Assembly: GCA_964569575.1 (NCBI GenBank)
Contig: CAZMTL010000005.1
Coordinates: 9,053-73,052 of the forward strand
Length of the DNA: 64,000 bases
Direction of reading: 5' to 3'
Source of the DNA: an uncultured Gammaproteobacteria bacterium
GTDB lineage: Bacteria; Patescibacteriota; Patescibacteriia; UBA9934
Shown here: positions 7,901 through 42,913 of the stretch, in pieces
Numbering within the stretch: the stretch's first letter is position 1
Layout: every line of letters begins with the position of its first letter
Notes under the pieces: model-generated
Databases searched by the model: none
The model's input: only the letters and a program-made list of their open reading frames with translations
What the model was told of the DNA's origin: nothing
Position numbers and translations under genes: made by a program

Positions 7901-10900
7901 ATTACTCGACAACTGGAATTTCGCTATTGCGCTCGAAGATGTTCGATTGTGTCAGGAGGGTGGAGTGTATACTTCTACCGTGTGTTCTGCTGATGTTGAG
8001 TGTTCAGCGACTGCTGGAGCCGTTTGTGGTTCGGAGAAGGCAAAAATTACTCGTGATACGAAGCGGTTGGCAGATATTACAACGATTAGTCGTCAGTTGA
8101 GTGCTTATGCGGTGCAGAATCGGTTCTGTTCTCAGACGACCGGTTTGAGTTGTCTTTCGAATGCGGATTGTCCTGGAACGGAATTGTGTGTTGATACCTA
8201 CCCACAGTTAGACGCGGGAACATTTGTGCGTTCGATTGATTCGAGTGCTTGGCCAAGTTGGAACGAAGTTTTGGGAACGCAAATTGGAGCCATTCCTTCC
8301 GATCCGTTAAATCGCTACAACGCTTGTGGTGAAGGAACTGCGTACGGTGATCACGATGCGGCCACTTGTGTAAATCAAACAACCGGCGTGTATTTGTGTC
8401 CAGAGAATTCGTATGCATACCATTACCGATCTGTTGGCGCGAATGCATTCGAGCTTAGCGCGGAACTTGAGTATGTAGGTACAGGTGCCCAGGCTTGGGT
8501 GAATGCGATTGATCCGGTAGCAGGTGATCAGCGTACGATTCGTGTTGGAAACGCGAATCCGAATTCGGGAGCAGGATTTTCTTCTGCTCAAGCGTTTTGT
8601 TCGAATGCGAGCTACGGTGGGTCGGATATTTGTGGTGATGGAATTGTTGGTCCGAATGAAGTGTGTGAAGTTGGCCAGGCTGGAGCGATGAATACGTGTG
8701 ATTTGAACGGGGATGGCGCTGCTGATTCGGTGCGTCCTACGGTCTGTAATGCAAGTTGTACTGGATTTGTGGAAACGGCCGGAGCAGATGCGGACGTATG
8801 TGCGTCATTTGCTTGTGGTAATGGAGTTATTGAACAGGGTGAAGCATGTGACGATGGCGCGTTGAATGGTCAGTATGGTTACTGTAGTTCGACGTGTTCA
8901 GGTGCTGGATTTTTCTGTGGAGATGGTCGAATTGCTGGCGGTGAATCGTGCGATTGCGGTCTTGATGGAAGTGGGGTGAGTGCGAGTGGTGGCGCGTGCA
9001 GCTCGCCAAATGGTGTGTACGGTTCAAATTTGAATAATACGTGTGCATGGGATTGTGGTGGTTCTGCGGCATTCTGCGGAGATTCGATTATTCAGGCAGG
9101 CGAACAATGTGATGGAAATGTTGAAACATGGGCAGGTGCTGTGTGTCGAACAGGTGCGAATATGGGTGATGCGTGTACAACGGATGCGGATTGTGGTGGC
9201 GGAGTTTGTGGAGGGTCGCGTCCAACGAATGCGTGTCCGACAAGTCGCGTGTGTTTAGATGGTCCGCAAGAAGGGTATGGATGTACGGCAGATGTCCAGT
9301 GTCCAGGAAGTACGTGCTCTGTGTTTACTGTTCAGACGGCGCGAACCAAGACTTGTGCTGATAACGGATTGGCAGGTGATAGCTGTTCGTGGGTTGGCGG
9401 AGATACGTTTATTGGTAAGGATTGTCGTGCGGCGGTTTCGTGCGGAAATGGCGTGGTTGATGCAGGAGAACAGTGTGATGATGGAAATGATGTAAATACA
9501 GATGCGTGTACAAATAGTTGTATCGCAAACGTGTGTGGAGATGGAATCGTTCAGGCTGGTGTTGAGCAGTGTGATTTGGGTACTCAAAACGGTCAGCAGT
9601 GTTCTTCGGCTTATCAGTCTTCGTGTAACTATTGTTCACCGACTTGTACATTATTGGCTTCTTCTGGGGCATTTTGTGGCGACGGTGTGCGCAACGGTGG
9701 TGAATTCTGTGATGCAGGAGATTTGCAGTATTACTGGTATTCCGCGTCTACGCGTACCGTTCGAAATGATGTCGCGACGTGTTTGGCGACTCAGGTTGGT
9801 CAAACGGTTACTGTTGCCGGTGTTCAATACGCGTGTACAAATATTGGAGCGTGTAATGGTGGAGTGAATAATGCGGATTTGTGTTCTTCGAATGCTCAGT
9901 GTGGTGGTGGAGGTTCGTGTGTGTTCCCGCAATGTGATTTGTCTTGTGGAAGTTCGTGTCCGTTAACGCTTACACCCGCTTCAGTGCAGTTCCTCGATAA
10001 TCAAGTTGGCGCAGTTCGTTCAGGTACGGTTGATTTGTTGAGCGCTTCTGAAACTTTGGATGCGGTTCTTCTGGGCGATCCAAATGCAGCAACGGCATAT
10101 ATTCCGGCTTGTCGAGTGGCAGATGATTTCATTATCGATATTTCTGGAACGAATCGAAGTTATCCGGATGTGGAGGTGATGTTCGTGCTGGATGAATCTC
10201 GCTCTATGACTTCGTCGCTTGGCGGTCAGCCTCGATTACAAGTCTTAAATGATGCGGTGAACGATGCAATCGATGCGTTATTCGACGGTTACTTGGGCCG
10301 TTCAGCGACGATGAGTATTGGTCTTTCTAGCTTTGGAGGAAGTCACTTTGTTCCAAATACAAATCGTACAGAGGTTCGGGATATGTTGGTTCTTTCTACG
10401 CGCGATGCCGCTTCTCGTAATCGTGCAGAGGTGAAGGCTGCGGCAAATCTTGTCTTAACCCAGGCGATTATGAATCCCGAAGGAACTCCTCTTTACGAAG
10501 CTATTCGTGATGCTCGAGACGGATTCACCGATGATCCGGACAGTCACAAAATTATCGTCATCTTCAGTGACGGGAATGTATATAACCCACAGGCTGAATA
10601 TGCATCGTTCCAGTCACATCTTGCAACTCCGTATGATCAGGGTGGTACGATGGACGCGCCAAAATATATGGCAGAGGTCTCGGATTTGATTGATCTGTAT
10701 AAGAGCCCAGCGGGTGGTGATATTGAAGTCTTTACCGCTATTTTGTCGAGTGGAGCTTGTAATGCTCAGCAAATGCAGCGTTGGTCTAGCATGACTTGTA
10801 CGGCTCAGCCTCGAGGATGTGCGCCTATTTCTGCGGAAGGAAATCATTCCTGCGTTGTTCCTCCAAATGGTGTGAATTATGCCTACCAAGCTTCTACCGC

Positions 10901-11150
10901 GGAAGAGTTGCGTGACATGTATGAATCGATTGTGAATTCAATCTTGAATATCACTGTTTCACTTACACATCAGGGAGAAACGATGTCAGTGACTCTGCCT
11001 GCGGGGTCGAATACACAGTTGGCGATTCCGGGAGCGTTTGCGTGTAATGGATTAACTGAACAGTCGATGACAATTAAAGCGTCCTTTGTTGATACGGGTG
11101 AAGGAACGGTTCAGTTGAGTGGTGGAGAAATTGATATGTGTCGTCCTTAA
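1917..11150 (+). CDS. Giant (about 3077 aa) pilin-domain fusion adhesin. Domain order: signal/TM, VirB2/TrbC-like hairpin (VIYAGFLWMTAAGNSEQVDKAKR), Gly/Asp linker, Big_5 Ig-like domains, IPT/TIG repeats (about nt 3190-4300), a Cys-rich repeat array (5731-6300), a second Cys-rich region (8620-9980), and a C-terminal von Willebrand factor A domain with MIDAS DESRS (about 10160-10760)
   Basis: ORF track 1806..11150; ATG at 1917 directly precedes the signal peptide MSSFFRSIFTLLFSAILFGGFWVLPVNAQ, 1 nt after the upstream stop; motifs read from the translation (GxYVTVTGSGF repeats, CGNGVVExGEDCDDGNxxxGDGCSxxC repeats, DESRSM...IIVIFSDGN). Confidence 0.85.
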   Translation: MSSFFRSIFTLLFSAILFGGFWVLPVNAQVADQVNDSLTVVGEGSGLSNQDLPTTIAKIINVVISLSGIILLVLVIYAGFLWMTAAGNSEQVDKAKRILVQAVIGLIIVFASFAITQFVISSLSNATGLQDGGSGGDDDDDGGGLGGSGSTSFTVAGVVPQGEVLIRNIVVQATFSRVVDESSVNNNSFQVVRVSDQEEVDGDLIVLGNRISFTPDQTCPDPNGDRFCFDENTAYEIRLTGDLESTNGRNLTTCANGCSYLFTSGSVVDVENPTVRFTVPAANERVSVNEVVPVQVFATDDYAVAGSDFAVDQAFFDSVGVPGVQTEVAIDSAWDTTTPVATVENTSYTLLSQVRDLAGNTATAQRSVRATPAHCFNGVVDSGATPPEEGLDCGGVCGACNGGACTENDQCSSGACLNGTCQSIPVISDVSPRDGAPGTYVTVTGSGFESVAGIVYFSDGSGGLVPSAVTACGEGWSATEIIVAVPEGAVDGPLTLQTNSGLEDTTNNDTGAFIEDFDVNTLERPSICRLAPNSSPSGSFVDVIGVNFGTTEAAVLFEGAQTVEARTYASWSDSEIELTVPSVRVGLHDVFVRVGGIESNKVQFNASEILSNAPVLATVAPASGGAGQYVTFSGSNFGTATGLVYFENVLTGVKTIADTNFPAVCAEGFWRADEVVVKVPDVDEGAYFVSVERGTDGADSNTLDFLVTNAAPTPGICSVSPARGLEGADVVISGENFGSQQGRALFYNEVSAINPVWGTSQISVTVPDGTSTGPLVIENAAGVQGNSVLFELGETDGDVDDAGAVAQYSWTFSTGQIPIAPSVVQACNENTISAVPNAVFSQNVCVNALVVAEFDTLMRHQTITNQTILLERCDSASCASASAVGATVSASSSADRTAFSLQINQGNGRLSPSTTYRVTVSDLVQSLDGTPMNQPFSWTFTTSTSSEDCDVEEVRVSPTRQTLSVLDQQAEYRALPVFGDCQVLVAEDYSWQWSVDESVASIDDTCDEILDGSCATVSALAEGEAVVTASSIDSGISGTGDLVVQFTDPFVQSFWPACSLACVNAQVGASFNIPVLAATVERSGAVALYECSNEFCTDLTLVSENADCVDGSDGCEGFTVRVNQLLRTSTYYRVVVSGDVQSQSGVPLTRLNYGEDYSWTFLTRADAQECAVARVDLSPGNAQVEVVGATQRFTATPFGEADACSVAGQRLNAYGYSWDWTNPIDSSSQSDDNIASWVTLGGELFDANPSSIPAGCSSACTAVGSFPLFAICGNNVVETGEDCDDGNTTGGDGCSSMCLNEGVVGGVCGNTVLDAGEECDDGNSTNGDGCSDMCLREGSQASGLTCGDGIVSRDTRYGGEDCDDGNKKGGDGCSAVCLNEGSQSISTVAAACGNGVVETPYETCDDGNGVSGDGCSNRCLREGISATVATGFICGNGVTERLPSGGGEDCDGGEGCSVTCRFEGSSTDYSTPSVCGDGIAGIGELAMCEAGYSGDGFDDPVQLAVIDGDAAQFVDESGLATQSIEVTLAPVTATANLQLSCSANSDADCPVGFGADQNGCCSERPTITAFPNGANACLNSAIYVTSNREMDLASFDDAAYVVYEGASCPQNHTTLALYRAVHKNWFARAWISIQTFFVRGANAQVSGDCVVPVERFVQSKVSDTEYRISFITNTLLEAGAPYAIVLEAGAEGVTTSTGVALANEVRQSFSTGSEICRLSQVEIVDETGVVPGLFRSLSETHDMIALPYAVLNGVRSEIQPVQGVYSWNWLPWQEDSGATLFSVQNQTTTPDRASVSTLGENGEATLVAQAQIIENSAPTGVVVDDTLRLRALLCENPWPSADLFPFEDSQAGFDRGIPNLLQTPDWMNFETYYCRDTSTEGALLPSLNIVSSTDTTSAGVIKEYFFAVGASRDVIGIRVVANPQYLSPSDWYTAQGFTGTASEEQVDGFEAVRSGRTIYVAAPNVSNVGTAMYSNIYAISYNEDASAQTQQIFEQLLDNWNFAIALEDVRLCQEGGVYTSTVCSADVECSATAGAVCGSEKAKITRDTKRLADITTISRQLSAYAVQNRFCSQTTGLSCLSNADCPGTELCVDTYPQLDAGTFVRSIDSSAWPSWNEVLGTQIGAIPSDPLNRYNACGEGTAYGDHDAATCVNQTTGVYLCPENSYAYHYRSVGANAFELSAELEYVGTGAQAWVNAIDPVAGDQRTIRVGNANPNSGAGFSSAQAFCSNASYGGSDICGDGIVGPNEVCEVGQAGAMNTCDLNGDGAADSVRPTVCNASCTGFVETAGADADVCASFACGNGVIEQGEACDDGALNGQYGYCSSTCSGAGFFCGDGRIAGGESCDCGLDGSGVSASGGACSSPNGVYGSNLNNTCAWDCGGSAAFCGDSIIQAGEQCDGNVETWAGAVCRTGANMGDACTTDADCGGGVCGGSRPTNACPTSRVCLDGPQEGYGCTADVQCPGSTCSVFTVQTARTKTCADNGLAGDSCSWVGGDTFIGKDCRAAVSCGNGVVDAGEQCDDGNDVNTDACTNSCIANVCGDGIVQAGVEQCDLGTQNGQQCSSAYQSSCNYCSPTCTLLASSGAFCGDGVRNGGEFCDAGDLQYYWYSASTRTVRNDVATCLATQVGQTVTVAGVQYACTNIGACNGGVNNADLCSSNAQCGGGGSCVFPQCDLSCGSSCPLTLTPASVQFLDNQVGAVRSGTVDLLSASETLDAVLLGDPNAATAYIPACRVADDFIIDISGTNRSYPDVEVMFVLDESRSMTSSLGGQPRLQVLNDAVNDAIDALFDGYLGRSATMSIGLSSFGGSHFVPNTNRTEVRDMLVLSTRDAASRNRAEVKAAANLVLTQAIMNPEGTPLYEAIRDARDGFTDDPDSHKIIVIFSDGNVYNPQAEYASFQSHLATPYDQGGTMDAPKYMAEVSDLIDLYKSPAGGDIEVFTAILSSGACNAQQMQRWSSMTCTAQPRGCAPISAEGNHSCVVPPNGVNYAYQASTAEELRDMYESIVNSILNITVSLTHQGETMSVTLPAGSNTQLAIPGAFACNGLTEQSMTIKASFVDTGEGTVQLSGGEIDMCRP
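5731..6300 (+). repeat. In-frame tandem DNA repeats (about 96-108 nt period, 5-6 copies) encoding myxo-type cysteine-rich repeats (C-G-N/D-G-x-V-E-x-G-E-x-C-D-D-G-N-x3-G-D-G-C-S-x2-C)
   Basis: Recurring 'gaggattgtgatgatggaaa...ggtgacggctgttcg...tgtttg' units visible at nucleotide level. Confidence 0.8.
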
Positions 11151-11151
11151 T

Positions 11152-12036
11152 ATGCAAGATTCGCAAGAACAACTACAGCCGGTGGAGTGGGTTGAGGTAA
11201 ATCCAAATCCTCAACCCAAGCCCAAGGCTCCAAAAGAACTTTCACCTGCGCTCCGTATTGTTATTTTTGTTGTTGGATTGATTGTGTGTTTGGGATTGGT
11301 TGCGCTATTGGTTGTTTCGATCGTGCGAACGGTTTTTGAAACAGATAATCGACAAACACAAGAGCAGATGCGCCAAGATGTTGCCGAGGCGGTGTTGATT
11401 TGTGATGACGCAGAAGATCGTGAGGGATGCGTGGAGCAGGTGAGTGTGCAGCTTGCGCAAGAACGAGGAGACGTTTCGTATTGTTTTTTGCTCGACCAGG
11501 GATTGCGAGACGACTGTGTTTTGAATGCTGCTATCTCGCTGAATGATCGCGGGATGTGTTCGCAGATGCAGGATGAAGCTCGTCGAGAACGGTGTGAAGA
11601 CGGATTATTTGTAAGTGCATTCGGATCGGATGCGCCGATCGAGATGTGTGATCGCTATCATGCTTCTGAACTGCGCGATAGTTGTATTGCTGTTCGAGTT
11701 CAGAATGCATTGCTTGCGGGCGAGTGTCCGGAACAAGCGACCGAAAGTGATTGCGCTGACTACGAGGTGATTCGCCGTGCGATTGCTGCTCGAGATGAAT
11801 CGATGTGTTTTGCGTTAGTGACGGATTCGTCGGAAGAAATGTGTCTTGGTCTTGTGAGTGAAGCTGTGTATCAATTTGAATTATCTGCCGAAGAAGGGAC
11901 TGTGGATACGGATGGGGATGGATTAACTGACGCCGAAGAGCGTTTACTTGGAACGAATCCGGCGTTGGTTGATACTGATGGTGATGGATTTAGTGATGGC
12001 GAAGAAGTTCGGAATGGCTTCGATCCTCTAAATTAG
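11152..12036 (+). CDS. Single-pass membrane protein with paired-Cys repeats and C-terminal thrombospondin type-3-like Ca-binding repeats (DTDGDGLTDAEE...DTDGDGFSDGEE)
   Basis: ORF track 11119..12036 trimmed to the ATG at 11152 (1 nt after the giant gene's stop); TM helix ALRIVIFVVGLIVCLGLVALLVVSIV; D-x-D-x-D-G-x-x-D-x-x-E motifs. Confidence 0.75.
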   Translation: MQDSQEQLQPVEWVEVNPNPQPKPKAPKELSPALRIVIFVVGLIVCLGLVALLVVSIVRTVFETDNRQTQEQMRQDVAEAVLICDDAEDREGCVEQVSVQLAQERGDVSYCFLLDQGLRDDCVLNAAISLNDRGMCSQMQDEARRERCEDGLFVSAFGSDAPIEMCDRYHASELRDSCIAVRVQNALLAGECPEQATESDCADYEVIRRAIAARDESMCFALVTDSSEEMCLGLVSEAVYQFELSAEEGTVDTDGDGLTDAEERLLGTNPALVDTDGDGFSDGEEVRNGFDPLN

Positions 12037-12080
12037 GTATCATATGAATAAATAGGATAGCTTCAATTACTTACGTTTCT

Positions 12081-12839
12081 ATGTTTGACGATCAACAATC
12101 ACAACCAACTCCAAAACCCCCAACGCCTCAGCAGCCTGTCGAGGATATGTTTGCTTCAACGGATGCTGTTGCTTCGGCTCCGGCGATGACCGCTTCGGTA
12201 GAGCAGGGCGGTGCCCCGATGAATTTACCAACCGCTCCTCCGGTAGAAGAACGTCAGATGCCTGTTCAGGCTCCAGTTACGCCTATGGCTCCTATGCCTG
12301 CGCCGGTTATGCCTTCGGACCGCATGAAGCCTCAGCCGACGATGGCGCCACCTTCGGCTGCTCGAACTCGACCTCCGGGTTCACGCGGGGGCGCGTTTAA
12401 AGTGATTTTTATTATTCTTGTTTCGCTCATTATTATTGCTATTGCTCTTTTCCTTGCCTACGCATTGGTGGTGGCGCCGAAGAGCGGTGACGTTGTGGAT
12501 TCGCTCGAGGATGATTCGTTGGTTGAAGATGATGTTGTCGTCGAGGACGAACCTGAGGTTCCGGTTATTGAAGAGGACCCAGTTGTAGTAGCGCCAATCG
12601 ATACAGACGGAGATGGATTAACAGATGCGGAAGAAGCTGCGGCGGGCACGTCGCCGTTGCGAGCGGATACGGATAGTGATGGATTGGGTGATCGAGAAGA
12701 AGTGAAAGTGTACGGAACAGACCCACTTGACGCAGATACGGATAAGGATGGGTATACGGATGGTGAAGAGGTGAGTTCGGGATATAACCCAAATGGACCA
12801 GGAAAGCTATTTGAAGTTCCGCAGGATATTAAAGAATAG
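12081..12839 (+). CDS. Pro-rich single-pass membrane protein with C-terminal TSP3-like Ca-binding repeats (paralog of the previous gene)
   Basis: TM helix FKVIFIILVSLIIIAIALFLAYALVVA; DTDGDGLTDAEE / DTDSDGLGDREE / DTDKDGYTDGEE. Confidence 0.75.
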   Translation: MFDDQQSQPTPKPPTPQQPVEDMFASTDAVASAPAMTASVEQGGAPMNLPTAPPVEERQMPVQAPVTPMAPMPAPVMPSDRMKPQPTMAPPSAARTRPPGSRGGAFKVIFIILVSLIIIAIALFLAYALVVAPKSGDVVDSLEDDSLVEDDVVVEDEPEVPVIEEDPVVVAPIDTDGDGLTDAEEAAAGTSPLRADTDSDGLGDREEVKVYGTDPLDADTDKDGYTDGEEVSSGYNPNGPGKLFEVPQDIKE

Positions 12840-12844
12840 TTGGT

Positions 12845-13813
12845 ATGGCACGTCGGAAGGAGGAGCGAAATTCGGCAAAGGTAACACAAAAGGAGTCAGA
12901 TTCTTTTGATTCTGTTGTATTTAAAGTGATGCCGAAGGAATTTTTAGGTGAAGGCGTTGAGCGTGTAGCGCCAGTTGAGGCGAAGTCTGTCCCGAAGCCT
13001 GTTCCTGCGCCTGTTGTTGTACCGCCCGCGCCAGTGCAGCCGACGATCACGAAGCCGGTTGCTATAAAGAAAAACAAGCGACGAGGTCCTGTTTTGTTAA
13101 TTGTATTCGGGCTACTCTTTCTGCTTGGACTTTCTGCGGCAGCGGTAGTATTACTTACTATTCTTTCGGAAGAAGATCCTGAGCCAATTGTGCCGGTTGT
13201 AGAAGACCCTGTTGTTATTCCTCCTGTGATTGAAGATCCTGTCGAGGAAGAGCCTTCGATTACGCAGGGAATCGATACGGATAGTGATGGTTTAACGGAT
13301 AGGGAAGAGGCATTGTACGGTACGGATGCACGCAATCCTGATACGGATGGTGATACATTTTTGGATGGAAATGAAGTGTTTCATCGGTATGATCCGCTTG
13401 GGTTTGCTCCATCTACGTTGCTTGATACGGGAAGTGTGGTTGAATATCGATCGGAAGTTGGCGGATACGCGCTTACCTATCCTCGCCAATGGAGCCTGAC
13501 GAGCACGGAAGGTGCTGGTATTACTTTGCGGGCGCAGACGGGTGCTACGATTGGGGTGATTGATTATGGTAAATCAGCCGAACAAGCGTTTTCTGCCTGG
13601 CTGGGTGAGGTCTATCCACAGATAGTATCGACGGACTTAAAGCAGGGGCTGACAAAGGCGGGATATGTTAGTTACACTACTGACGACCAGCGAACGGCTT
13701 TTCTGGTATTTGATTCGCGTGTTGTTGTGTTTACGTATACGCTTGGGAATAGTTTGGTGATAGACTATCTACAGACGTTCCAGATGATGGTGAATAGCTT
13801 CTTTTTAGAATAA
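12845..13813 (+). CDS. Single-pass membrane protein with central TSP3-like Ca-binding repeats and a C-terminal globular domain (third paralog)
   Basis: TM helix VLLIVFGLLFLLGLSAAAVVLLTIL; DTDSDGLTDREE...DTDGDTFLDGNE. Confidence 0.75.
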   Translation: MARRKEERNSAKVTQKESDSFDSVVFKVMPKEFLGEGVERVAPVEAKSVPKPVPAPVVVPPAPVQPTITKPVAIKKNKRRGPVLLIVFGLLFLLGLSAAAVVLLTILSEEDPEPIVPVVEDPVVIPPVIEDPVEEEPSITQGIDTDSDGLTDREEALYGTDARNPDTDGDTFLDGNEVFHRYDPLGFAPSTLLDTGSVVEYRSEVGGYALTYPRQWSLTSTEGAGITLRAQTGATIGVIDYGKSAEQAFSAWLGEVYPQIVSTDLKQGLTKAGYVSYTTDDQRTAFLVFDSRVVVFTYTLGNSLVIDYLQTFQMMVNSFFLE

Positions 13814-22381: not shown

Positions 22382-24370
22382 CTATTTTTCAAACTTGTTA
22401 AACAGGGTTGGGTCGATGTCCATTACTTTTGTGGCCCAGTCATTTCCGAAGCGTTGTCGAGCAACTTCTTCGGATGGAATATATTCTAACGCTTCACGCA
22501 CGTTTCCGGCAATAACTAGATACGTTTCTGGTTTGCTTTGAATTTTTACGAGCGTTCCTGCTTTTGGTAGCACGGGCATTCCGAGCGGGATCGTTGGAAG
22601 TGTTGCGTCGGTAACGATTTTGATATTGTCGAAGTTTGCGAATCGAGTGAAGTAAATGGCTTCGTTCATGAATGGCCGACGCGTTCCGTTTTCGATTAGG
22701 TAGACGGTGTCGTAGTTTTGGCCTCGAATCAACTGTGCGCCCGTGATGTCGGTGATTAGCTCGATGTTTCCTGTGAACGGTGATGGTCCTGTTGTAGGTG
22801 ATTCGGTTGATTCCTCTTCGTCCACTTCTTCTTCGATCACTTCGTTTTCACATTCAAACGACAGTTGTTCGCTTGCACTTGTTGAGGTGATTGATCCGCT
22901 TGTGTTTCGCAGGGCGAGGTAGACCGTTGTAGTGGATTGTTTGATCTGAAAATTCCACGACTTTGTGATACTTTCTGCCGTTAATTCTTGCCATGTCGCA
23001 TTTGAAAAATCTGCATTGTTCGAAAGAATGTATTCAGTTGCCCCGGCTGATTGAATGTTTACTTCACCTGTCAGGCTTCCAGAATCGCACGAATAGGCGA
23101 GGGAGTGGATTGAGAGAGAGGCTGTCGTGATCGGTGTTGCACTTGTTTCGGAAGACGAACTTCGTTTTACCGAGAAATTCCAGGTGGTTTCGTTGTTGAT
23201 TCCTGGGAATATTCCACCGCCGTCAACAGCGAATGCTCCGCTGTCGATTTGAATGTAGACATCTTCGCCGTTTGGTAATTGGCCTGGCTCGATGGTGATG
23301 GTTTCGGTTCCTGATCCGCTTACGCGATTGCTTTCAACATCGATTGTTGAAAAAAGTACGTCGTTGTTTGTGCGGTAGATGTAGATGTTTCCGGTTCCTG
23401 TGATGACGTCCTGGTCGAAGGTGATTTCTAGATCTGCACTTCGTAGTACGTCAACTTCGTTATCTGTTGGAGAGAGAGTTACGATTTCTGGTGCTTCGAA
23501 TGCGGTGAGGGAGAATTCTGCTCCAGCAGTTTCGGGCATATCTCCGTCTGCTCCGAACTCGACGACGTATCCAGGAAGCATACTTGTAGCACAGCCGAGG
23601 TCATTCCATTCGCCGCTTTGTAATCCACCCGAGAGGAACTGCGCGCAGTCTTCGCTGCTACTGCTGTCGTTTGGTTCGTTTTCGTTCCAGTTTTCGTATT
23701 CCCCAGGCACAACAGCTCCAAATTGATCACCTACCCAGAATAGGTCACCTGTTTCTGGTCCGGTCACCCAGCGCCATTCGTCTTCCACGGCGGCGTCGCT
23801 TGCACCCATCCATCCAGCTCCGCCAAGTCGAGCGGCGACGAAGTCATTTTCTTCCTGTGAAGTGATGGTGGTGAGATATCCTGTGGCTCCATAGCGTTCA
23901 AGTCCTGCCGCGGCGATCTGAGCATTGTTCCAGTTGATGTTTCCTGGCACGGAAATATATTCGTACAAATGTCCATTTCCGGAAAAGAATACTTCGCCTT
24001 CTTCTACGAGCGATACTTCTAATGTGTCGGCGCCGGTTGAGTCGGCTGTGTAGAGAAGTGTTGCGAGTGCTGCGTTTACATCTTCGACATCGCCTGAAAA
24101 GTAGAGTTCTGCTCCAGTTTCTGGACCGGTAAACGTGAGTCCGGTTGTTGTTGTCATTTCGAGCGTTCCGTTGCTTACGAGTAATTTTACCGGAATGACT
24201 CCTACGGCATTAAGAACTTCGATGCCTGTTAAAAGGATAGGTAGGTCGACTGTTGCTGTTTGGTTGTCGTCGCCGATGACTTCTAATTCACCGTCAGCAT
24301 AAGTTGGCTGAATGTGCAGCAGGGAAGTTGCAAGCACGCTGATTAATAACGCGCCAAGAATCTTTTTCAT
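22382..24370 (-). CDS. Secreted C-type lectin domain protein (CTLD with EPN and WND motifs) plus a C-terminal domain shared with the 1679-aa protein
   Basis: ORF 22382..24397 trimmed to MKKILGALLISVLATSLLHIQPTYA (signal peptide); CTLD motifs WNNAQ...C, ITSQEENDFV, GWMGASD...EDEWRWV, WNENEPN, EDCAQF, GEWNDLGC. Confidence 0.85.
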   Translation of the reverse strand: MKKILGALLISVLATSLLHIQPTYADGELEVIGDDNQTATVDLPILLTGIEVLNAVGVIPVKLLVSNGTLEMTTTTGLTFTGPETGAELYFSGDVEDVNAALATLLYTADSTGADTLEVSLVEEGEVFFSGNGHLYEYISVPGNINWNNAQIAAAGLERYGATGYLTTITSQEENDFVAARLGGAGWMGASDAAVEDEWRWVTGPETGDLFWVGDQFGAVVPGEYENWNENEPNDSSSSEDCAQFLSGGLQSGEWNDLGCATSMLPGYVVEFGADGDMPETAGAEFSLTAFEAPEIVTLSPTDNEVDVLRSADLEITFDQDVITGTGNIYIYRTNNDVLFSTIDVESNRVSGSGTETITIEPGQLPNGEDVYIQIDSGAFAVDGGGIFPGINNETTWNFSVKRSSSSETSATPITTASLSIHSLAYSCDSGSLTGEVNIQSAGATEYILSNNADFSNATWQELTAESITKSWNFQIKQSTTTVYLALRNTSGSITSTSASEQLSFECENEVIEEEVDEEESTESPTTGPSPFTGNIELITDITGAQLIRGQNYDTVYLIENGTRRPFMNEAIYFTRFANFDNIKIVTDATLPTIPLGMPVLPKAGTLVKIQSKPETYLVIAGNVREALEYIPSEEVARQRFGNDWATKVMDIDPTLFNKFEK

Positions 24371-24480
24371 ACGAAAAATAAAGTAATATTGGCTCAATTA
24401 TAACACGGACGCACGGATTATTTTTTGTTTGGAAGTGTGGGTGTTGATAGGTTTTGTGGGGAGGGTTGAAAATGAAAAAA

Positions 24481-24505: not shown

Positions 24506-24581
24506 TGGCGGGCTGGACGGGACTCGAACCCGCAACTTCCGCCGTGACAGGGCGGTGCTCTAACCATTGAACTACCAGCCC
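24506..24581 (-). tRNA. tRNA-Asp (anticodon GUC), CCA encoded
   Basis: Minus-strand read GGGCUGG-UA-GUUC-AAUGGUUA-GAGC-A-CCGCC-CU-GUC-AC-GGCGG-AAGUU-GCGGG-UUCGAGU-CCCGU-CCAGCCC-G-CCA folds as a cloverleaf. Confidence 0.9.
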
Positions 24582-34493: not shown

Positions 34494-35765
34494 TTATAGC
34501 TCGTGATCGTAATGCCAGCCGCTTGTGCGCATTTTGAAATGTGTTCCAAGCGTTGCTGCGCGTTGCCAGATTCCTGCTCCGTGCTTTGCCTGTAGTGTGT
34601 CGAGTGCTTGTAGAGTTTCGCGCACTTTTCTAGGTTTTACGAACAGGGATTCGGGTGATGGTATTTTTTGTAAATCAGAAGTACTGATACCGAGTAGTCT
34701 AATTCCATTCATTTCATTCACCTGATCTTTTAGAAGAGACCATGCGATTTGAAATATTTCTAAGCCGTCTTCTGTTGAATGAGGGAGGACTTTTTGCATT
34801 CCGAAGCCGCCGAAATTGTTATATCGGGCATAGACTGATATTTGTTTTGCGGTGAAGGATTTTTTTCTTAGCCTTGAAGCTACTTTGTCGCAGAGTGCGA
34901 GAAGATTTTTTTTGATTTCTTGTTCCGAGAATAGTTCGTAGGGGAAGGTGTACGAGTGACTGATAGATTTTTGTTCTTCTTCGAGGGAAGAAACTTCATC
35001 ACTTCCTATGCCGTTTGCGGCGAGATGCAGAAAGTGTCCGTAGCTTTTGAATTCACTTACAAGTACAGAAAGTGGAGTTTTCTGAAGGCTTTCGATCGAT
35101 GTGATTCCGATTTTGTGTAGGTGTTCTTCTGTTTGTTTTCCGATCCCGCAAATTGCCTGTAGTTCGTGATTACGCATGAACGAAGCGAGCTCGTGTGGCT
35201 GTACGACGGTGAGCCCATTTGGCTTGATCGATTCACCTGCGAGTTTTGCGATTAATTTATTCGGTCCTATGCCGATTGATGCTGTGCAAGCGATGCCGAT
35301 CTCTTTTTTGATGTCGTGACGAATTTTTTCGGCGAGAAATACGGCGGAAAAATAATCACCTGCTGCAATTGTCACGTCTGCGAATGCTTCGTCTGTACTG
35401 AATTGTTCTACGCTGTCGCTGTAACGTTTTAGAATTTCTAAAAAATGAGCTGTTACTTTACTGTATTTTTGAGGATCGCCTGGAATGATAATGAGTTCGG
35501 GACAAAGGCGCTTTGCCTGTGTCGAGCTCATGGCGGTTTTGACGCCTCGGGCTTTTGCTTCTTTTGATGCTGTTGTTATGACTGTTCTGTGGTGCTTTAA
35601 TGAGCTTAAAGAAACACTAGAGGTAGATCTGTTTGCGTAGAGGTCAATTGATTGTTTTCCTTTGCCTGCTACGGCGATGGCTTTTCCTCGTAGGAAGGGA
35701 TTAGCTTGTTGTTCGACAGAGGCAAAAAACGAATTGAAATCAAGGTGAAGGATGATTTTGTTCAT
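34494..35765 (-). CDS. dinB: DNA polymerase IV (Y-family)
   Basis: ILHLDFNSFFASVE...; Y-family palm/finger motifs. Confidence 0.9.
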   Translation of the reverse strand: MNKIILHLDFNSFFASVEQQANPFLRGKAIAVAGKGKQSIDLYANRSTSSVSLSSLKHHRTVITTASKEAKARGVKTAMSSTQAKRLCPELIIIPGDPQKYSKVTAHFLEILKRYSDSVEQFSTDEAFADVTIAAGDYFSAVFLAEKIRHDIKKEIGIACTASIGIGPNKLIAKLAGESIKPNGLTVVQPHELASFMRNHELQAICGIGKQTEEHLHKIGITSIESLQKTPLSVLVSEFKSYGHFLHLAANGIGSDEVSSLEEEQKSISHSYTFPYELFSEQEIKKNLLALCDKVASRLRKKSFTAKQISVYARYNNFGGFGMQKVLPHSTEDGLEIFQIAWSLLKDQVNEMNGIRLLGISTSDLQKIPSPESLFVKPRKVRETLQALDTLQAKHGAGIWQRAATLGTHFKMRTSGWHYDHEL

Positions 35766-37120: not shown

Positions 37121-37750
37121 TTATGCGTGCGTAAATTTTCGAATAACTGCTTTTACGATTCCTTGGATATTGATGTCTCCTCGAATGATGATAGGGCTCA
37201 TGGTGCTATTCGCTGGCTGTAGTCTGATGTGGTCGCTTTCTCGGTAGAATCGTTTAAGTGTCGCGTAGGCATTGTCGAGTAGAGCTACGACTATGTCCCC
37301 ATTTCTTGGAGAGTGGTTTCGTTCGATGACGACGTAGTCACCGTCGAAAATGCCGTCTTCGATCATTGAGCGTCCTTTTACTTTTAGTACGTATGAGTTT
37401 TCTGGGTCTAGGACGAAGTCAGAAGGCACCGCGAACGCGTCCTGGTCTTCGATGGCTTCTATCGGCTCACCGGCGGTGATCACACCTACGAGAGGGAGGG
37501 CGATGCTCATTGGGGAAAGGTTTTCCGTTTCGATCAGTTCTATCGATCGCGCACTTCCGTCCTCGGCCGTGTTGATGACTCCTTTTTCACAGAGCGCTTG
37601 AATGTGCTGGTGAACCGTTGAAGGGGAGGCGTAGCCTAGTTTTTCTGCGATTTCACGGTATGAGGGCGTGTAGCCGTTTGCTTGAATGAAGGATTCGATG
37701 CAATCGAGTACTTGCTTTTGTTTCTTTGTAAGTGGGGGGAGTTGGTTCAT
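37121..37750 (-). CDS. lexA: LexA repressor (S24 peptidase)
   Basis: ORF 37121..37855 trimmed to MNQLPPLTKKQKQVLDCI; wHTH N-domain; Ser (KGRSM) and Lys (ATLKRF) catalytic dyad. Confidence 0.9.
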   Translation of the reverse strand: MNQLPPLTKKQKQVLDCIESFIQANGYTPSYREIAEKLGYASPSTVHQHIQALCEKGVINTAEDGSARSIELIETENLSPMSIALPLVGVITAGEPIEAIEDQDAFAVPSDFVLDPENSYVLKVKGRSMIEDGIFDGDYVVIERNHSPRNGDIVVALLDNAYATLKRFYRESDHIRLQPANSTMSPIIIRGDINIQGIVKAVIRKFTHA

Positions 37751-37873: not shown

Positions 37874-40800
37874 TTAAAGGAGTTTTCGAAGAGACTGGAT
37901 TACGAGCGTTGCTGCGCCTGTGCTTGCTGTTTCTTGAATTGTTTCGATCGCTGCTCGTGTGAATTCTTTCAATCGATTGAAGAATTCGCTTGTGATTCCT
38001 CTATCTTCTTCGCTCGAAGACCGTTCGTTGAGTAGTTCTCGTTTTCGCGCTTCCGAAAACTCTATTCCGTCATTGAGAATGTCTTCTTCCGACATGTATG
38101 GAGCTTCGAAAACGAATTGATTTGTCAGCGTTGGGTTTAGGTCCAGTACATAGTCCGCCCAATTTTCACCTGCGATAAATGTTGCCAGCTCTTCTGTTTG
38201 CACCCAGCGTAGCTTTCCTGTCGTTGGATCGTTTGGATCTTGATGGAAGTAGTACACTTCATCCCGACTTTGGAATTTTACAAATGCTACGTGTTCACGT
38301 GGAAGCATTGGTTCTTGTATTGAGAATTCGCGTAATGTTTCGTCTGAAACCCATTTCACGTTTTCGAATGACCGTGCATGTGTAAAATAGCTGGTTTCGT
38401 CTACGAATGGTCGACGCGAAAGATCGCGGTCGATGCAGTAGACGGTTTCGAAGTTTTTGGAACGAATGTAGTCGCCTGGGAAGATTTTATCAACCGGTAC
38501 CAAGTCGCCCGACGTTGGCGAAACTCCGAGTTGGTAGCGAGCGCGATCGGCGGATGAAAGAGGAGTCATGAAGATGCTTTCGCATCCGAGAACAGGCTCT
38601 GTCTCAGGTTCGGAATTGTCACATTGTGTTGCTTCGTCAATATTGATATCGAAGACGAATGTTCCTGTTTGTTGCGCTCCGTTTCGGAATCGGATATAGA
38701 GCGTGTGTAGCCCGTCGTTGTTTGTTCCTACGAATGACGTTGTCATCGTTTGAGTGGTGAGCGCTTCTGTTCCTTGGTCTGGAATGTAGGATTGCCAAAG
38801 CGCACCAGCGAAGTCGATATTTTCTGCAATGATGTAGTCACTAATTTGAGATCCGCTCAATTGCAGAAGGATGGTGTTTGTTGGCGAGCATACCGGAAGG
38901 CTGACAGAGATATTTGTAGGAGGGACTGGTTCTGGACCACCGCTTCCGCCACCACCGCCACCTCCTCCTGAGTCGTTGTCGATGTTTACAATGGCGACGT
39001 CCTCGCCGTCTACAGAGTCGTAGATTGGGGCAGTTGTTTCTGCAACGTCAATGACTACTTGTGCGAGATAGGCAATGTTTCCGTCGACGATTGCGTCGTC
39101 TTGACCGGTTACAGTAACCGTTTGAGGAATGTCCCAGTTTTCTGAGTCGAACCAAAGTTCGCTACCACTCGTGATGGTTCCTTCAGTTAAGTCACTCGAA
39201 CTAATATCGAAATGGACCTCCGTTCCAATAGCTGGTCGAGCGGTGATTTCTACGGTAAATGTTCCTGTTACTCCTGCTTCGGTTGTGTTGTTCGAAATTG
39301 TCGATACGATTATTCCAGAAACGTCGTCGTCAATGTTAGTGACTGCTACTTGCTCGCTTGCGATCACATCGTATTCGTCTGCAAGTGTAAGATCTTGATC
39401 GATGGTGACATCTATATTGTAATCAATGTCTCCGTCATCGAAGTCGTCATCTTGTCCAGTAATGGTTACTGTTTGCGGGATGGCCCAGTCTTCTGTTGTG
39501 AATGTGAGTATGGAACCAGTTGTTACAATTCCTTCGTCTGTATTGTCGGACGCTGTATTGATGATGACTGTGTTTGTCGGTTCGGTTAAGAGGACAACGG
39601 TAAACGTAGCTGTTATGCCAGCTTCGGTCGTATCATTTGATATTTCTGAAACAAGAATTCCGGGTTCATTATCAGTTTCTGCGTTGAAGAGAAGGCTATC
39701 TACTTGGGGATTTTCGTGTGTGTCGTTTGAGAAGAAGGTTGCTGAACTATAAACGTCATCCACGTTGGTATCCCATCCGTTTACAGCGGTTAAATCTGCT
39801 TCGTCGAGTAGTTCGAGGGCGGTGCCGGTCATTCGGTTGTTCGGCCCGTCTGCAATGGATTCCGAAATGGCGGTTGCTGCTTCGCTTACGCTTGCGACTG
39901 CCCATGTTCCGCCGTTTTCTCGGTAATACCAGGTTCCGTCAACGTTTCCGTGAACGAGCGTATCGTTTGAGGCGATGGGTCGTAGGTCTGCGTTGATTCG
40001 ATACGTAGCTCCTTCATCGAACGAAAGGGCGTAGTAGATGGACTGGTTATTGAGGGTTTCTGCTACATCGATGTCACTGAGCGTGAGAAGGGCGCTTGTG
40101 TCGGCTGCTGCTGTTAGTTCGGTGACAATGGTGTAGTACGTGTTTTCTTCTACGCCGTAAACTACTTCGTGTAGGAAGTTTTCAGATCCTTCTTCGAATA
40201 TTTCTTCTGCATCGAGTGACCACAGGTCTCCTTGGCTGTCGATGGCCGCTGCGTTTATTGAACTACTTTCTGTTGCGATGTCTTCGAGGAAGTTGTCGCT
40301 TTCTAAGTCGTATCTGGACCAATTAGCTATTCCTAGGTAGAGAATATTTCTTGTGGGTTCGATAACCATGTCCTGAACTTGTCCGGTTGGTTTGTAGAAC
40401 TCTACGGCGAGTGTCGCGCTATCGATGGCGATCAGGAAATTATTTGCAATCAGGATGCGTTCATTCAGGTTGTCGTAGAGCATGGTTGTAGGTGTTCCTT
40501 GCGATAGACTTGGTGTGGAGTGCAATTGTACGCTGCTGTTTTCGAAGGTACCGTTGTAGTACGCGCCTGTTGCGGCGTTTATTTTTACTGCAAGATCTTT
40601 TACTGAGGTGGTGATGACCGCCCAGATTGCATCTTCGTTTGAATCATAAGCAAGATCAAGTATTTGGTCATTTTCTTCCAAAATACTGCCGTTGATCGTG
40701 TAGGAGCTGTTAGCAATGTTGCCGTTCGCAAATGCGCCCGTGACTGCGTTTATTTTTACAATGTTTGGAATGCCTTGGTCGTCTTCGTCCGCGACCCAAA

Positions 40801-42913
40801 TAATATCGTTGCTTGCGTCTACGTCATTTCGATTATCGAATACGATAGCAGAGGGTGCATCTGCGAAATCGGTTGCTCCATTGAGGGTGACTTCAATAAA
40901 AACTGTACCGTTGTCGTTTAAGGCGGTGATGCTCGGTCCTCCGTTATTGTTCGATTCTGTGACCCACAGCCGATTGCGAGTTGGTTCTTCGTCGAGCACC
41001 ATGTCGTATGCTTGTCCGTCGAGTACTATGAATTCGTTTAGGATGGTTGTGTCAATTTCGTATTCAATAACAGATCCGTTCGCGTTAAAATACCAAAGAC
41101 TATTATTTATTTCATCATAAACAAGAGGGGAGGTAGAGGGTTCGTACTCCGCTCCCTCGTCAGTTAGATTTCGTTCCGTATTTAGGTAATAGAACTCTTC
41201 GAGGCTACCGATCGAATTTTCTATTTGCGTTCGGGTCGTGTCTTCTTCTTGATACTGATCCGGATCCTCGAAATCGGTAAGGGCAACGGGCTGATCGTTA
41301 TCCAGGTTTGTTCCTGTAATCACCGAACCTGCAAGGCCGTTGAAAAGCGGGTCTGTTGAACTTGATGACCCGATCGTGATTGTGTAATCGATGGACCCGT
41401 CATTTAGTCCGTCGTCTTGGCCGGTCACTGTGATTGTTTGCACGTCTTCCCAGTTAGCGTTTGTGAATGTAAGACTGGCTGATGAGACAGTTCCTTCGGA
41501 TGTGTCCGAACTCTCCACCGGGATGGTGACGTCGTTTGTTGGTTGTTGATTTAGAGCGACTTCGATGGTGAATGTATCGCCGCTTTCACTCGTAATGCGG
41601 TCACTGGTTTCAAAAATAAGTATTCGTTCGTTAAAGTCGATATTTGTGTTATTTCCTGCGTTGATACATTGGTCATAGCATGCGGCTTCGGTTCCGACCC
41701 AGGTAATGTCTTGAATTTCAAGCGAATCTAGCTGTGCGAATGTTCCGTCGAAATCTATGGTAGCCGCGTTGCCCGGTGAAGAGCTTTGCAGGAGCCCGCC
41801 GCTTACGTAGAATGATTCGTTTATTGTGATCGTTTCGCTAGCTTCGAGTACCAGAGTGCTCGCGCGTAGGATGTTGAATGTGGGTGATCCGATGATGCTT
41901 TGTTCGCCTGGGAAATTTACAAAGCGCACGCTTCCATTTCCTGCATTGAATATTCCGTTTGTTTCGGAGAAAAATTCACCCGTGAATAATATTGCCGTTG
42001 CATCACCGTCGAGTAATCCTTCGTCTAGAAATACACTTCCTCCAAAGAAGAATTGATCAGTTAGCATGTTTCCTGGCAGGATTACTTCTGCACCAGCATT
42101 GCTGATTCGAAGTCCAGGAAACCATCCGCCGTCGAACGCGTTTACGGTGATCGCTGATTGAATATCAATTTCGCCGTTTCCAAGTTGTGAAGAAGATGAA
42201 CATGTTCCCGTATGGGTCATCGTTCCTTGTACTTCGATTGTTCCTTCGTTGAAGGTGCAGCCCGCACCAAGATTGAATTCTCCCTCCACTGCAATCACTT
42301 CCCCTGGCGTCATGTTGAGCGTTCGTATGTCGCTTGCAAAATTGAGTGTAAAATCGAAGAAGGTGATACCTGTGTCTACTGCGGCTGTTATATTACGACC
42401 CTCGAGTGCCACTTCTCCGTTGTTGTGGCTGAATGTAGCTGCGGCATTATAAGTAAAGTTGTGATCCACGAAATCGTTTTCAAAACTCATTTTCCCCGAT
42501 GTTGCAGTAAAGGTTCCTCCGGTTAATTCGAAATCGCCGTTTATTATGATCGCTTGCGATCCCCCGGCGAATGTTCCTCCCGCCATTGTGAAGTCGTTTA
42601 CGGTAATGCTGCCGGCTTGTGTGATCGTTCCTGCGTAATCGTTTTGAATTTCGATAGCGACGACCGAAATGGCTACGTTTACAATCGCGCTGTCGTTCGA
42701 AATAGCTCCGTCGAATACCGCGATGTCGGTTACGGTTGGGCAGATGTTTGTTGACCAGTTATCGCAATCGTTCCAGTTATCGCTTATCCCGCCACCATCC
42801 CAGGTGTAGGTGGCACTTTGTGTTGAAAGGATGTGCCAAATGGCGATAAAACCTGTTGCAACAAAAAGGCTAACGAGCAAAATCGTTAATCGTTTCAGGG
42901 AAAGAATTTTCAT
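37874..42913 (-). CDS. Giant secreted protein (1679 aa): signal peptide, parallel beta-helix-like GG(T/A)F repeats, beta-propeller-like region, three Calx-beta/cadherin-like repeats, (Gly)12 linker, conserved about 120-aa domain shared with the CTLD protein, and an acidic coiled-coil tail
   Basis: ORF track; signal peptide MKILSLKRLTILLVSLFVATGFIAIWHILS; repeats 'SSDTSEGTV..LTFT..NW..PQTVTVTGQDD...DG.I.Y' x3; DSGGGGGGGGSGGPEP. Confidence 0.85.
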   Translation of the reverse strand: MKILSLKRLTILLVSLFVATGFIAIWHILSTQSATYTWDGGGISDNWNDCDNWSTNICPTVTDIAVFDGAISNDSAIVNVAISVVAIEIQNDYAGTITQAGSITVNDFTMAGGTFAGGSQAIIINGDFELTGGTFTATSGKMSFENDFVDHNFTYNAAATFSHNNGEVALEGRNITAAVDTGITFFDFTLNFASDIRTLNMTPGEVIAVEGEFNLGAGCTFNEGTIEVQGTMTHTGTCSSSSQLGNGEIDIQSAITVNAFDGGWFPGLRISNAGAEVILPGNMLTDQFFFGGSVFLDEGLLDGDATAILFTGEFFSETNGIFNAGNGSVRFVNFPGEQSIIGSPTFNILRASTLVLEASETITINESFYVSGGLLQSSSPGNAATIDFDGTFAQLDSLEIQDITWVGTEAACYDQCINAGNNTNIDFNERILIFETSDRITSESGDTFTIEVALNQQPTNDVTIPVESSDTSEGTVSSASLTFTNANWEDVQTITVTGQDDGLNDGSIDYTITIGSSSSTDPLFNGLAGSVITGTNLDNDQPVALTDFEDPDQYQEEDTTRTQIENSIGSLEEFYYLNTERNLTDEGAEYEPSTSPLVYDEINNSLWYFNANGSVIEYEIDTTILNEFIVLDGQAYDMVLDEEPTRNRLWVTESNNNGGPSITALNDNGTVFIEVTLNGATDFADAPSAIVFDNRNDVDASNDIIWVADEDDQGIPNIVKINAVTGAFANGNIANSSYTINGSILEENDQILDLAYDSNEDAIWAVITTSVKDLAVKINAATGAYYNGTFENSSVQLHSTPSLSQGTPTTMLYDNLNERILIANNFLIAIDSATLAVEFYKPTGQVQDMVIEPTRNILYLGIANWSRYDLESDNFLEDIATESSSINAAAIDSQGDLWSLDAEEIFEEGSENFLHEVVYGVEENTYYTIVTELTAAADTSALLTLSDIDVAETLNNQSIYYALSFDEGATYRINADLRPIASNDTLVHGNVDGTWYYRENGGTWAVASVSEAATAISESIADGPNNRMTGTALELLDEADLTAVNGWDTNVDDVYSSATFFSNDTHENPQVDSLLFNAETDNEPGILVSEISNDTTEAGITATFTVVLLTEPTNTVIINTASDNTDEGIVTTGSILTFTTEDWAIPQTVTITGQDDDFDDGDIDYNIDVTIDQDLTLADEYDVIASEQVAVTNIDDDVSGIIVSTISNNTTEAGVTGTFTVEITARPAIGTEVHFDISSSDLTEGTITSGSELWFDSENWDIPQTVTVTGQDDAIVDGNIAYLAQVVIDVAETTAPIYDSVDGEDVAIVNIDNDSGGGGGGGGSGGPEPVPPTNISVSLPVCSPTNTILLQLSGSQISDYIIAENIDFAGALWQSYIPDQGTEALTTQTMTTSFVGTNNDGLHTLYIRFRNGAQQTGTFVFDINIDEATQCDNSEPETEPVLGCESIFMTPLSSADRARYQLGVSPTSGDLVPVDKIFPGDYIRSKNFETVYCIDRDLSRRPFVDETSYFTHARSFENVKWVSDETLREFSIQEPMLPREHVAFVKFQSRDEVYYFHQDPNDPTTGKLRWVQTEELATFIAGENWADYVLDLNPTLTNQFVFEAPYMSEEDILNDGIEFSEARKRELLNERSSSEEDRGITSEFFNRLKEFTRAAIETIQETASTGAATLVIQSLRKLL

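Follow-up and report, generated by a model that had tools for sequence, protein, structure and literature searches.

A two-repeat module of the EccB type near the C-terminus of diverse predicted surface proteins of Candidatus Uhrbacteria, a candidate for envelope retention

The DNA analysed here (the window) is a stretch of 64,000 nucleotides from an uncultured bacterium, positions 9,053 to 73,052 of contig CAZMTL010000005.1 (GenBank assembly GCA_964569575.1), titled Gammaproteobacteria in the record and placed in the Patescibacteriota (Patescibacteriia; UBA9934) by GTDB. Two of its minus-strand genes, one for a C-type-lectin/Ig-like protein and one for a much larger secreted protein, encode a similar module at or near the C-terminus, and this module and its possible function are the subject of the present work. 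Both module genes are scattered among housekeeping genes and there is no dedicated locus. Their features, derived from the list of open reading frames (ORFs) with translations, domain searches and an AlphaFold2 model, are the following.

22382..24370, minus strand: gene 1, secreted C-type-lectin/Ig-like protein of 671 amino acids (ORF list, translation, Pfam)
24296..24370, minus strand: gene 1 signal peptide, MKKILGALLISVLATSLLHIQPTYA; site of A-x-A-like type, TYA|DG (translation)
23582..23887, minus strand: Lectin_C cargo domain, gene 1 residues 171-272 (Pfam PF00059, E = 5.1e-10)
23171..23497, minus strand: Big_5 bacterial Ig-like cargo domain, gene 1 residues 301-409 (Pfam PF13205, E = 2.9e-6)
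22385..22792, minus strand: module copy 1 (hairpin, repeat 1 and repeat 2), gene 1 residues 536-671 (BLASTP, tblastn, AlphaFold2 model, family profile)
22757..22792, minus strand: N-terminal beta-hairpin of copy 1 with an S-P-x-T-G loop, TGPSPFTGNIEL (predicted strands at model residues 5-7 and 14-16, confidence score above 90)
22565..22741, minus strand: repeat 1 of copy 1, residues 553-611, a predicted EccB-type unit of order b-b-b-a-b-a (b, strand; a, helix) (AlphaFold2, Foldseek, hhalign)
22385..22561, minus strand: repeat 2 of copy 1, residues 613-671, a divergent second unit of that type (element order in the AlphaFold2 model, hhalign)
37874..42913, minus strand: gene 2, secreted protein of 1679 amino acids with an N-terminal hydrophobic segment (ORF list, translation)
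38099..38530, minus strand: module copy 2, gene 2 residues 1462-1605, subterminal (BLASTP, tblastn)
38492-38530, minus strand: hairpin of copy 2
38300-38479, minus strand: repeat 1 of copy 2
38099-38296, minus strand: repeat 2 of copy 2
37877..38098, minus strand: tail of 74 residues that follows copy 2 and contains the basic motif FSEARKRELLNE at 38024-38059
37934-37987, minus strand: tail segment EFFNRLKEFTRAAIETIQ, amphipathic if helical

The ORF of gene 1 spans 22382..24397; it opens at a TTG (24397) and closes with the stop codon at 22382-22384, the ATG at 24370 being the probable start. The label of C-type lectin given to its product from the sequence alone was borne out by the Lectin_C match (E = 5e-10). 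The product of gene 2 is identical in sequence to database protein P0001 and contains no Pfam or NCBIfam domain, hence the description of this protein as a beta-helix is unconfirmed.

Alignment of the C-terminal regions of the two proteins by BLASTP with composition-based statistics scored 88.2 bits (E = 7e-27), with 51 of 142 positions identical (36%) and 56% positive. The sequence-only reading had claimed that a domain of about 120 amino acids is common to the two C-termini; its consensus string agrees with this alignment, and the claim holds after composition correction. That the similarity reflects homology and not composition follows from the membership of both copies in one large family (see below). 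In a tblastn search of the whole window the module was found exactly twice in the 64 kb: each copy found the other at E about 1e-20, and the next matches had E >= 0.68. The interval originally drawn for copy 1 (22385-22760) was essentially right, extending to 22792 when the hairpin is included, whereas that for copy 2 (38234-38611) was displaced upstream by about 110-140 nucleotides from the true 38099-38530. The two-repeat cores occupy 22385-22732 and 38099-38470. The C-terminal position ascribed to the domain applies strictly to copy 1, which ends at the stop codon without a tail (the lectin protein terminates in ...DPTLFNKFEK, without a hydrophobic stretch), but copy 2 is subterminal, with 74 residues beyond it.

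The size of the family was determined by an exhaustive HMMER search with a two-sequence profile against 1.84 billion cluster representatives, which returned 3318 representatives at E <= 1e-3, 1236 at E <= 1e-10 and 155 at E <= 1e-30. A word-index homologue search with a single module gave no match, and with a 45-sequence profile it gave 11 matches only. Scanning one genome per GTDB species with a 6-sequence alignment identified 117 relatives, for which 79 loci (L001-L079) were fetched. Informative titles of these records read Candidatus Uhrbacteria or 'Patescibacteria group', and those cluster members that bear a name are recorded as 'hypothetical protein [Candidatus Uhrbacteria bacterium]'. 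The family is thus almost confined to Candidatus Uhrbacteria and Patescibacteria, bacteria of the Candidate Phyla Radiation (CPR). There are multiple copies per genome, and tandem gene arrays are common, with up to three genes in a row (L044).

No model of Pfam or NCBIfam describes the module. The two isolated copies had no Pfam or NCBIfam match even at E <= 10; no model matched any of 45 family modules scanned singly against Pfam (E <= 10) or the module region of 60 full-length members, and a profile search of PDB sequences with the module family returned nothing at E <= 10. Within the module, the two window proteins and these 60 + 45 family members showed no match to SLH (PF00395), CWB2 (PF04122), LysM, SH3b or PG_binding_1, nor was there an NCBIfam or Pfam match to Por_Secre_tail (TIGR04183 / PF18962), the C-terminal domain of cargo of the type IX secretion system. 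Since both databases were empty for these families and for LPXTG-type anchors, the earlier statement that no known anchoring or sorting family fits is upheld. Literature searches on Uhrbacteria surface proteins, EccB-like proteins and CPR wall-binding found no paper on this module family.

A 140-residue segment of the lectin protein was modelled by AlphaFold2 from a 45-sequence alignment. The model had a predicted local distance difference test score (pLDDT) of 96.5 and a predicted template modelling score of 0.85, and consisted of a beta-hairpin (residues 5-16) followed by two b-b-b-a-b-a units at residues 25-71 and 85-135; repeat 1 modelled alone had a pLDDT of 94.5. Residues Y35, R42, K87, E112, W123 and D129 of this segment are invariant in the family alignment. 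When the whole module was compared with the PDB by Foldseek, the sole high-probability matches were EccB5, EccB1 and EccB3 (E = 3.4e-4, probability 0.99), EccB being a core component of mycobacterial ESX (type VII) secretion; the global template modelling (TM) score against EccB was low, 0.34, because the repeats differ in mutual orientation. With repeat 1 alone the top 10 matches were all EccB chains, at TM 0.60-0.65 and a root-mean-square deviation of 2.8-3.1 A over 53-63 columns with 15-21% identity. These EccB matches had probabilities of 0.87-1.0, and all lower-ranked matches were below 0.1. The comparison by Foldseek, which had been suggested together with the sequence-only reading, thus recovered the EccB repeats.

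A sequence link to EccB is provided by one family member, P0097, which carries at least 13 tandem copies of a single repeat. It matches the module family profile at E = 1e-33 and passes the curated cut-off of PF05108, T7SS_ESX1_EccB (39.3 bits against 27; E = 4e-10 for the sum of the repeats). In hhalign comparisons the profile of the P0097 repeat matched repeat 1 of the module with a probability of 98.5% (E = 3e-15) and repeat 2 with 73.8% (E = 2.9e-5), while direct comparison of the profiles of repeats 1 and 2 gave a weak match (P = 0.003) involving the first hairpin only. The P0097 repeat as an intermediate, taken with the predicted structure, suggests an internal duplication. By sequence and model, the module is predicted to be a hairpin followed by two diverged EccB-type repeats of about 55 amino acids. 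The domain is therefore undescribed in the sense that it has no Pfam or NCBIfam model, but its fold is known, a tandem of two EccB-type repeats. In short, this is a real and large family that neither Pfam nor NCBIfam contains. It is built from a repeat fold that is already known, and the anchoring proposed for it is a familiar principle.

P0097 itself is a protein of 1423 amino acids encoded on an NCBI metagenome contig of 19.6 kb. Its repeats are about 58 amino acids long (FRDGTLIKGSSATVYVIENGQKRGI...), and a Cys/His-rich region in its C-terminal part, HEWGHWWYDLGDEY, resembles a metalloprotease motif.

The module-bearing proteins are not EccB proteins, as judged by architecture, model match and context. 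What the module has in common with repeats R1-R4 of EccB is a tandemly arranged repeat of about 55 amino acids, built of a four-stranded sheet and two helices and located on the outer side of the cytoplasmic membrane. EccB has, in addition, an N-terminal cytoplasmic segment, a transmembrane helix and a central beta-sheet core domain, and its repeats number four; the module has none of these, consists of two repeats, possesses an extra SPxTG hairpin and is a terminal unit on unrelated cargo. No match to PF05108 was found in the two window proteins, the two isolated modules or the 45 family modules (the modules at E <= 10), and a Pfam scan of the window's largest ORFs, about 40 in number, revealed no ESX component such as EccC, EccD or WXG100, with whose genes that of EccB is associated.

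Position was analysed in the best 150 family members, motifs in 140, cargo in 60 and signal peptides in the 124 members starting with methionine. The proteins of the best 150 range from about 150 to 3000 amino acids, and in nearly all of them about 20-25 residues separate the module from the C-terminus. The 79 loci contain 104 module ORFs, and about 92 of the first 100 listed stop no more than 10 residues past the module and its tail. A signal-like N-terminal hydrophobic segment was found in 93 of the 124 (with an A-x-A site in 55 of the 93); the members lacking such a segment have the appearance of truncated gene calls. The domains found as cargo vary widely and are of surface type: Big_5 in 29 of 60 members, Kre9_KNH in 8 and CopC in 5, besides FG-GAP, Laminin_G_3, Beta_helix, Peptidase_S8, Polysacc_deac_1, DUF285 and others. 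Some members carry TSP3-type repeats or PG_binding_1 beyond the module; PG_binding_1, present in two members, is a separate domain.

The loop of the hairpin, about 15 residues ahead of repeat 1, fits the pattern [SN]P-x-[TDNS]-[GND] in 136 of 140 members. It reads SPVTG in 52 of the 140 and SPITG, SPLTG, SPFTG or other variants elsewhere, and hairpin residues S8, P9 and G12 are invariant or nearly so. After the module about 100 of the 140 members have a conserved tail, 'vD-x-s-x-M-K-(T/K)-R-x-e-L', which is absent from the subfamily of the lectin protein (P0026, P0118, P0128). In a subfamily of proteins of 1500-1860 amino acids the module is followed by 'F-R-K-R-E-L-L-N-E' and 40-70 more residues. 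If these longer tails are helical, their hydrophobic moments are 0.41-0.77, and 9 of 12 exceed shuffled sequences at p < 0.05; the corresponding value for the tail of copy 2 is 0.60 (shuffle mean 0.42, p = 0.03). The tail of the 1679-amino-acid protein and of its subfamily, if amphipathic in this way, could be an in-plane membrane anchor.

The module is not bound to the C-terminal end. In proteins of 900-1360 amino acids (L014, L029, L041, L068 and L070) and in a 269-amino-acid protein (L045) the two-repeat module stands right after the signal peptide, without hairpin and tail, and these N-terminal versions lack the S-P-x-T-G motif. A conserved gene pair occurs in at least six Uhrbacteria genomes: a gene for a protein of about 1300 amino acids bearing an N-terminal module is directly followed, downstream, by one for a Peptidase_S8 subtilase of about 530 amino acids whose module is C-terminal. 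No mycosin is found among the 60 best matches of this subtilase to PDB sequences; it resembles extracellular proteases of the deseasin, thermitase and AprV2 type. The pair has the coordinates 1-4080 and 4930-6468 in L068 and is also found in L070, L029, L041, L014, L038 and L049. The protein of about 1300 amino acids has no Pfam hit, and the pair may represent an S-layer-like protein and its processing protease.

The explanation that we favour, with a probability of about 0.55, is that the module serves as a non-covalent envelope-retention module on surface proteins. A module-bearing protein would be exported by the Sec pathway and its signal peptide removed, after which the module would keep the otherwise soluble protein on the cell envelope by non-covalent binding. 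The binding target may be a glycan of the cell wall, such as peptidoglycan or a wall polymer, or else a shared protein of the envelope, and the N-terminal cargo (lectin, Ig-like or beta-helix) would project outward. The role of the module would be that of SLH, CWB2, SH3b or LysM modules in Firmicutes. This explanation is favoured because proteins whose signal peptide is cleaved have no other common retention device. Recurrence on thousands of diverse cargo proteins, near the C-terminus, is the pattern of an anchoring module, and the presence of N-terminal signal peptides on the cargo proteins makes the module needless for export. A strictly C-terminal export signal is disfavoured by variants in which the module immediately follows the signal peptide or is multiplied in long tandem arrays. 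By analogy, the position independence of the module resembles the behaviour of SLH and CWB2 anchors. We also counted for anchoring the PG_binding_1 wall-binding domain that is added after the module in two members. The earlier suggestion of a surface-anchoring or secretion-targeting domain is therefore retained in its first part, which thousands of diverse cargo proteins with the module near their C-terminus make plausible, but not in its second, as the N-terminal and array variants and the signal peptides make secretion targeting unlikely.

The comparison with known anchors is in line with this assignment. A survey of S-layer proteins described the SLH and CWB2 anchors as swappable modules common to many proteins of one genome (bioRxiv 10.1101/2025.04.02.646754). 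Like the monoderm anchors SLH, CWB2, SH3b and LysM, the module is a single unit borne at either terminus by many Sec-secreted proteins with swappable cargo; it differs from them in having no sequence match to any of them and another predicted fold. As regards its functional class, the module shares with non-covalent envelope anchors the occurrence on many unrelated secreted proteins per genome, at either terminus.

Several observations weigh against envelope retention, above all against its wall-binding version. The EccB repeats are extracytoplasmic, and because they weakly resemble PlyCB, a wall-binding protein of phage origin, they were proposed to bind the wall (PMC4769845); this speaks for retention, but the role demonstrated for them is protein-protein contact. 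Peptidoglycan binding by EccB repeats is a suggestion only, and binding of the wall by the module would be an analogy to it. PlyCB was not among the Foldseek matches of the whole module or of repeat 1, so that the link to PlyCB is second-hand; moreover, PlyCB, the subunit of the streptococcal phage lysin PlyC that binds the cell wall, is a separate single-domain subunit forming an octameric ring, whereas the module is a fused tandem. The module is acidic (median pI 4.3; the window copies 5.2 and 4.7), and electrostatic binding to anionic wall polymers therefore gains no support. No module was found in phages by tblastn against 50,697 phage records or in a scan of IMG/VR. Genes for GT2 and GT4 glycosyltransferases, an NAD-dependent epimerase/dehydratase, UDP-glucose dehydrogenase, a WecA/MraY-like transferase and a small DUF2304-like membrane protein recur as neighbours, each at about 10 of the 79 loci; the sugar genes among them may hint at a link to wall glycans, but the hint is weak, the numbers being raw counts without a background rate. 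No conserved accessory machinery was found beside the module genes across the 79 loci.

Two further leads were dropped or left aside. A basic, polyanion-binding module had been considered and was abandoned in view of its acidity. A search of BFVD gave just uncharacterised actinophage proteins and weak lysin or CHAP matches and was not relied on.

According to the main rival explanation the module is a docking or assembly unit: EccB-type repeats would bind each other or a partner protein. Cargo would in this way be oligomerised, or the many module-bearing proteins woven into a network on the surface or a coat resembling an S-layer, with no binding to the wall itself. One argument for it comes from the ESX-5 structure obtained by cryo-electron microscopy, in which R1 and R4 form the EccB-EccB dimer, dimers contact each other through R2 and R3, and the subtilisin-like MycP5 is bound by R4 (PMC8131196); protein-protein contact is the sole role of EccB repeats that has been seen experimentally. 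The conserved pairing of a subtilase with the protein bearing an N-terminal module would fit such a function, as would the acidity of the module, which its cargo shares. The parallel with MycP is, however, a generic one, the subtilase being of the deseasin/thermitase/AprV2 type, and the idea of a mycosin-like protease partner was dropped for this reason. Apart from the subtilase pair no conserved partner gene adjoins the family members, and oligomerisation by itself leaves unexplained how proteins deprived of their signal peptide are retained. We regard docking without retention as unlikely, although it deserves serious consideration.

CPR bacteria are generally thought to be episymbionts. This lends some appeal to the possibility that the module is a distal adhesion domain, which binds the wall or surface of the host and not the envelope of the producer. 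The wall binding proposed for the EccB fold (PMC4769845) would be compatible with such a role, and the N-terminal hydrophobic segments of some members, including the 1679-amino-acid protein, could be uncleaved membrane anchors holding the other end. Many members, however, possess canonical cleavable signal peptides with A-x-A sites, the module can also be N-terminal, and it is hard to see why hundreds of different proteins should share one host-binding tip while having no device for retention on the producer. Adhesion to the host as the function of the module is accordingly quite improbable.

The strongly C-terminal position of the module on diverse cargo is also what would be expected of an export or sorting signal that is recognised and then removed by dedicated machinery, as in the type IX secretion system, and the conserved short basic tail 'vDxsxMK(T/K)R xeL' could be a processing site. 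The C-terminal domain of type IX cargo (Por_Secre_tail) is likewise common to many secreted proteins, but it is a beta-sandwich cut off by PorU in diderm Bacteroidota, whereas the module is predicted to be an alpha/beta repeat pair that may be N-terminal or internal. An export signal of this kind is very unlikely: signal-like N-terminal segments are already present in 93 of 124 members, N-terminal modules exist too, as do arrays of at least 13 repeats and internal modules that precede PG_binding_1 or TSP3 repeats, the lectin protein of the window has no tail, neither Por_Secre_tail nor any other sorting-signal model of NCBIfam and Pfam matches, and conserved neighbouring machinery genes are lacking.

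Covalent attachment by a sortase at S-P-x-T-G, with the rest of the module as the leaving group, would account for the near invariance of this motif. The SPxTG loop resembles (S/P)PXTG, the motif in substrates of sortase B from Clostridioides difficile. In sortase substrates the motif is followed by a hydrophobic segment and a basic tail, whereas here it precedes a folded module of about 130 amino acids and forms the loop of a confidently predicted hairpin within the fold (pLDDT > 90). The lectin protein, ending in ...PTLFNKFEK, has no such segment and tail beyond the motif, the N-terminal versions of the module lack the motif altogether, the recurrent neighbours include no sortase-like family, and NCBIfam gave no LPXTG-anchor match, all of which makes this mechanism highly implausible. 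An enzymatic role can be practically dismissed: it would find a precedent in the ATPase activity of the periplasmic part of EccB1, reported by Zhang et al. in 2015 as cited by Wagner et al. (PMC4769845), but the module matches no enzyme family, consists of two small repeats without the central domain of EccB and is extracytoplasmic, where ATP is not expected.

If envelope retention is taken one step further, Candidatus Uhrbacteria may use the two-repeat EccB-type module as a general anchor for surface display. It would then represent a new class of envelope anchoring or docking, by which lectins, Ig-like adhesins, beta-helix proteins and the conserved subtilase are tethered, together with a giant S-layer-like partner bearing the module at its N-terminus. 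This wider proposal is tentative, and we rate its chances as somewhat less than even. If it is true, the EccB repeat is for the first time placed in a functional context other than type VII secretion, and a handle is gained on how the cell surface is built in uncultivated Uhrbacteria episymbionts. The CPR, or Patescibacteria, account for a large part of the diversity of bacteria, and annotation is lacking for most of their surface proteins. With more than 3000 protein clusters, the module would mark the envelope-associated proteome of one CPR lineage and serve as a key for annotation, each carrier being a predicted cell-surface protein, and it suggests how lectin- and adhesin-like proteins may be displayed towards the host. 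Through it, the periplasmic EccB repeats found in mycobacterial ESX systems become linked to a far larger family of repeats outside the cytoplasm, and this link may contribute to finding out what the EccB repeats bind. No concept is overturned: that terminal modules can anchor proteins is well known, and the function of this one is inferred.

With respect to the origin of the window, the nearest named relatives of its ribosomal protein S2 are proteins of Uhrbacteria/Patescibacteria, at 57-63% identity. Many of the records containing module loci are titled 'uncultured Gammaproteobacteria bacterium' (L007, L014, L017-L020, L030 and others) and hold genes of the Uhrbacteria type. The S2 protein of one of them, contig CAZKGL010000001.1 of 838,942 bp, carries the NCBI name Candidatus Uhrbacteria, and such titles seem to be placeholders. 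Two other loci, L057 ('Candidatus Kapaibacterium', 509 kb) and L011 ('Deltaproteobacteria', 5 kb), may be mislabelled or mis-binned.

Among the approximately 40 largest ORFs of the window, the Pfam scan identified FtsA/FtsZ, MreB, enzymes of glycolysis, ATP synthase, ribosomal protein S2, UppS, LexA, DinB, an M23 peptidase and glycosyltransferases. At the beginning of the window there are two adjoining plus-strand genes whose products, of 623 (44-1915) and 3114 amino acids (1806-11150), have T4SS_pilin-like N-termini; the larger one also contains TIG, Big_5, DUF4215 and VWA domains. Giant surface or pilus-associated proteins of this kind are typical of the CPR and count among its hallmarks. 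Next to them, at 11119-13813, come two proteins with TSP3_bac repeats.

A tRNA-Asp gene is located at 24506-24581. The neighbouring segment 24729-26776 has a GC content of 0.53 (0.44-0.49 elsewhere) and contains long, overlapping ORFs on its two strands; neither rRNA nor any other Rfam family was detected in it. A minus-strand ORF of 512 amino acids in this segment has no Pfam match and encodes one predicted transmembrane helix and low-complexity stretches rich in Ala, Glu and Thr. Immediately downstream of the gene for the 1679-amino-acid protein lies a gene for a LexA repressor (37121-37855, minus strand), and about 2 kb downstream of the same gene there is one for a DinB-type translesion polymerase (34494-35765, minus strand); the two constitute a small SOS-type pair in a CPR genome.

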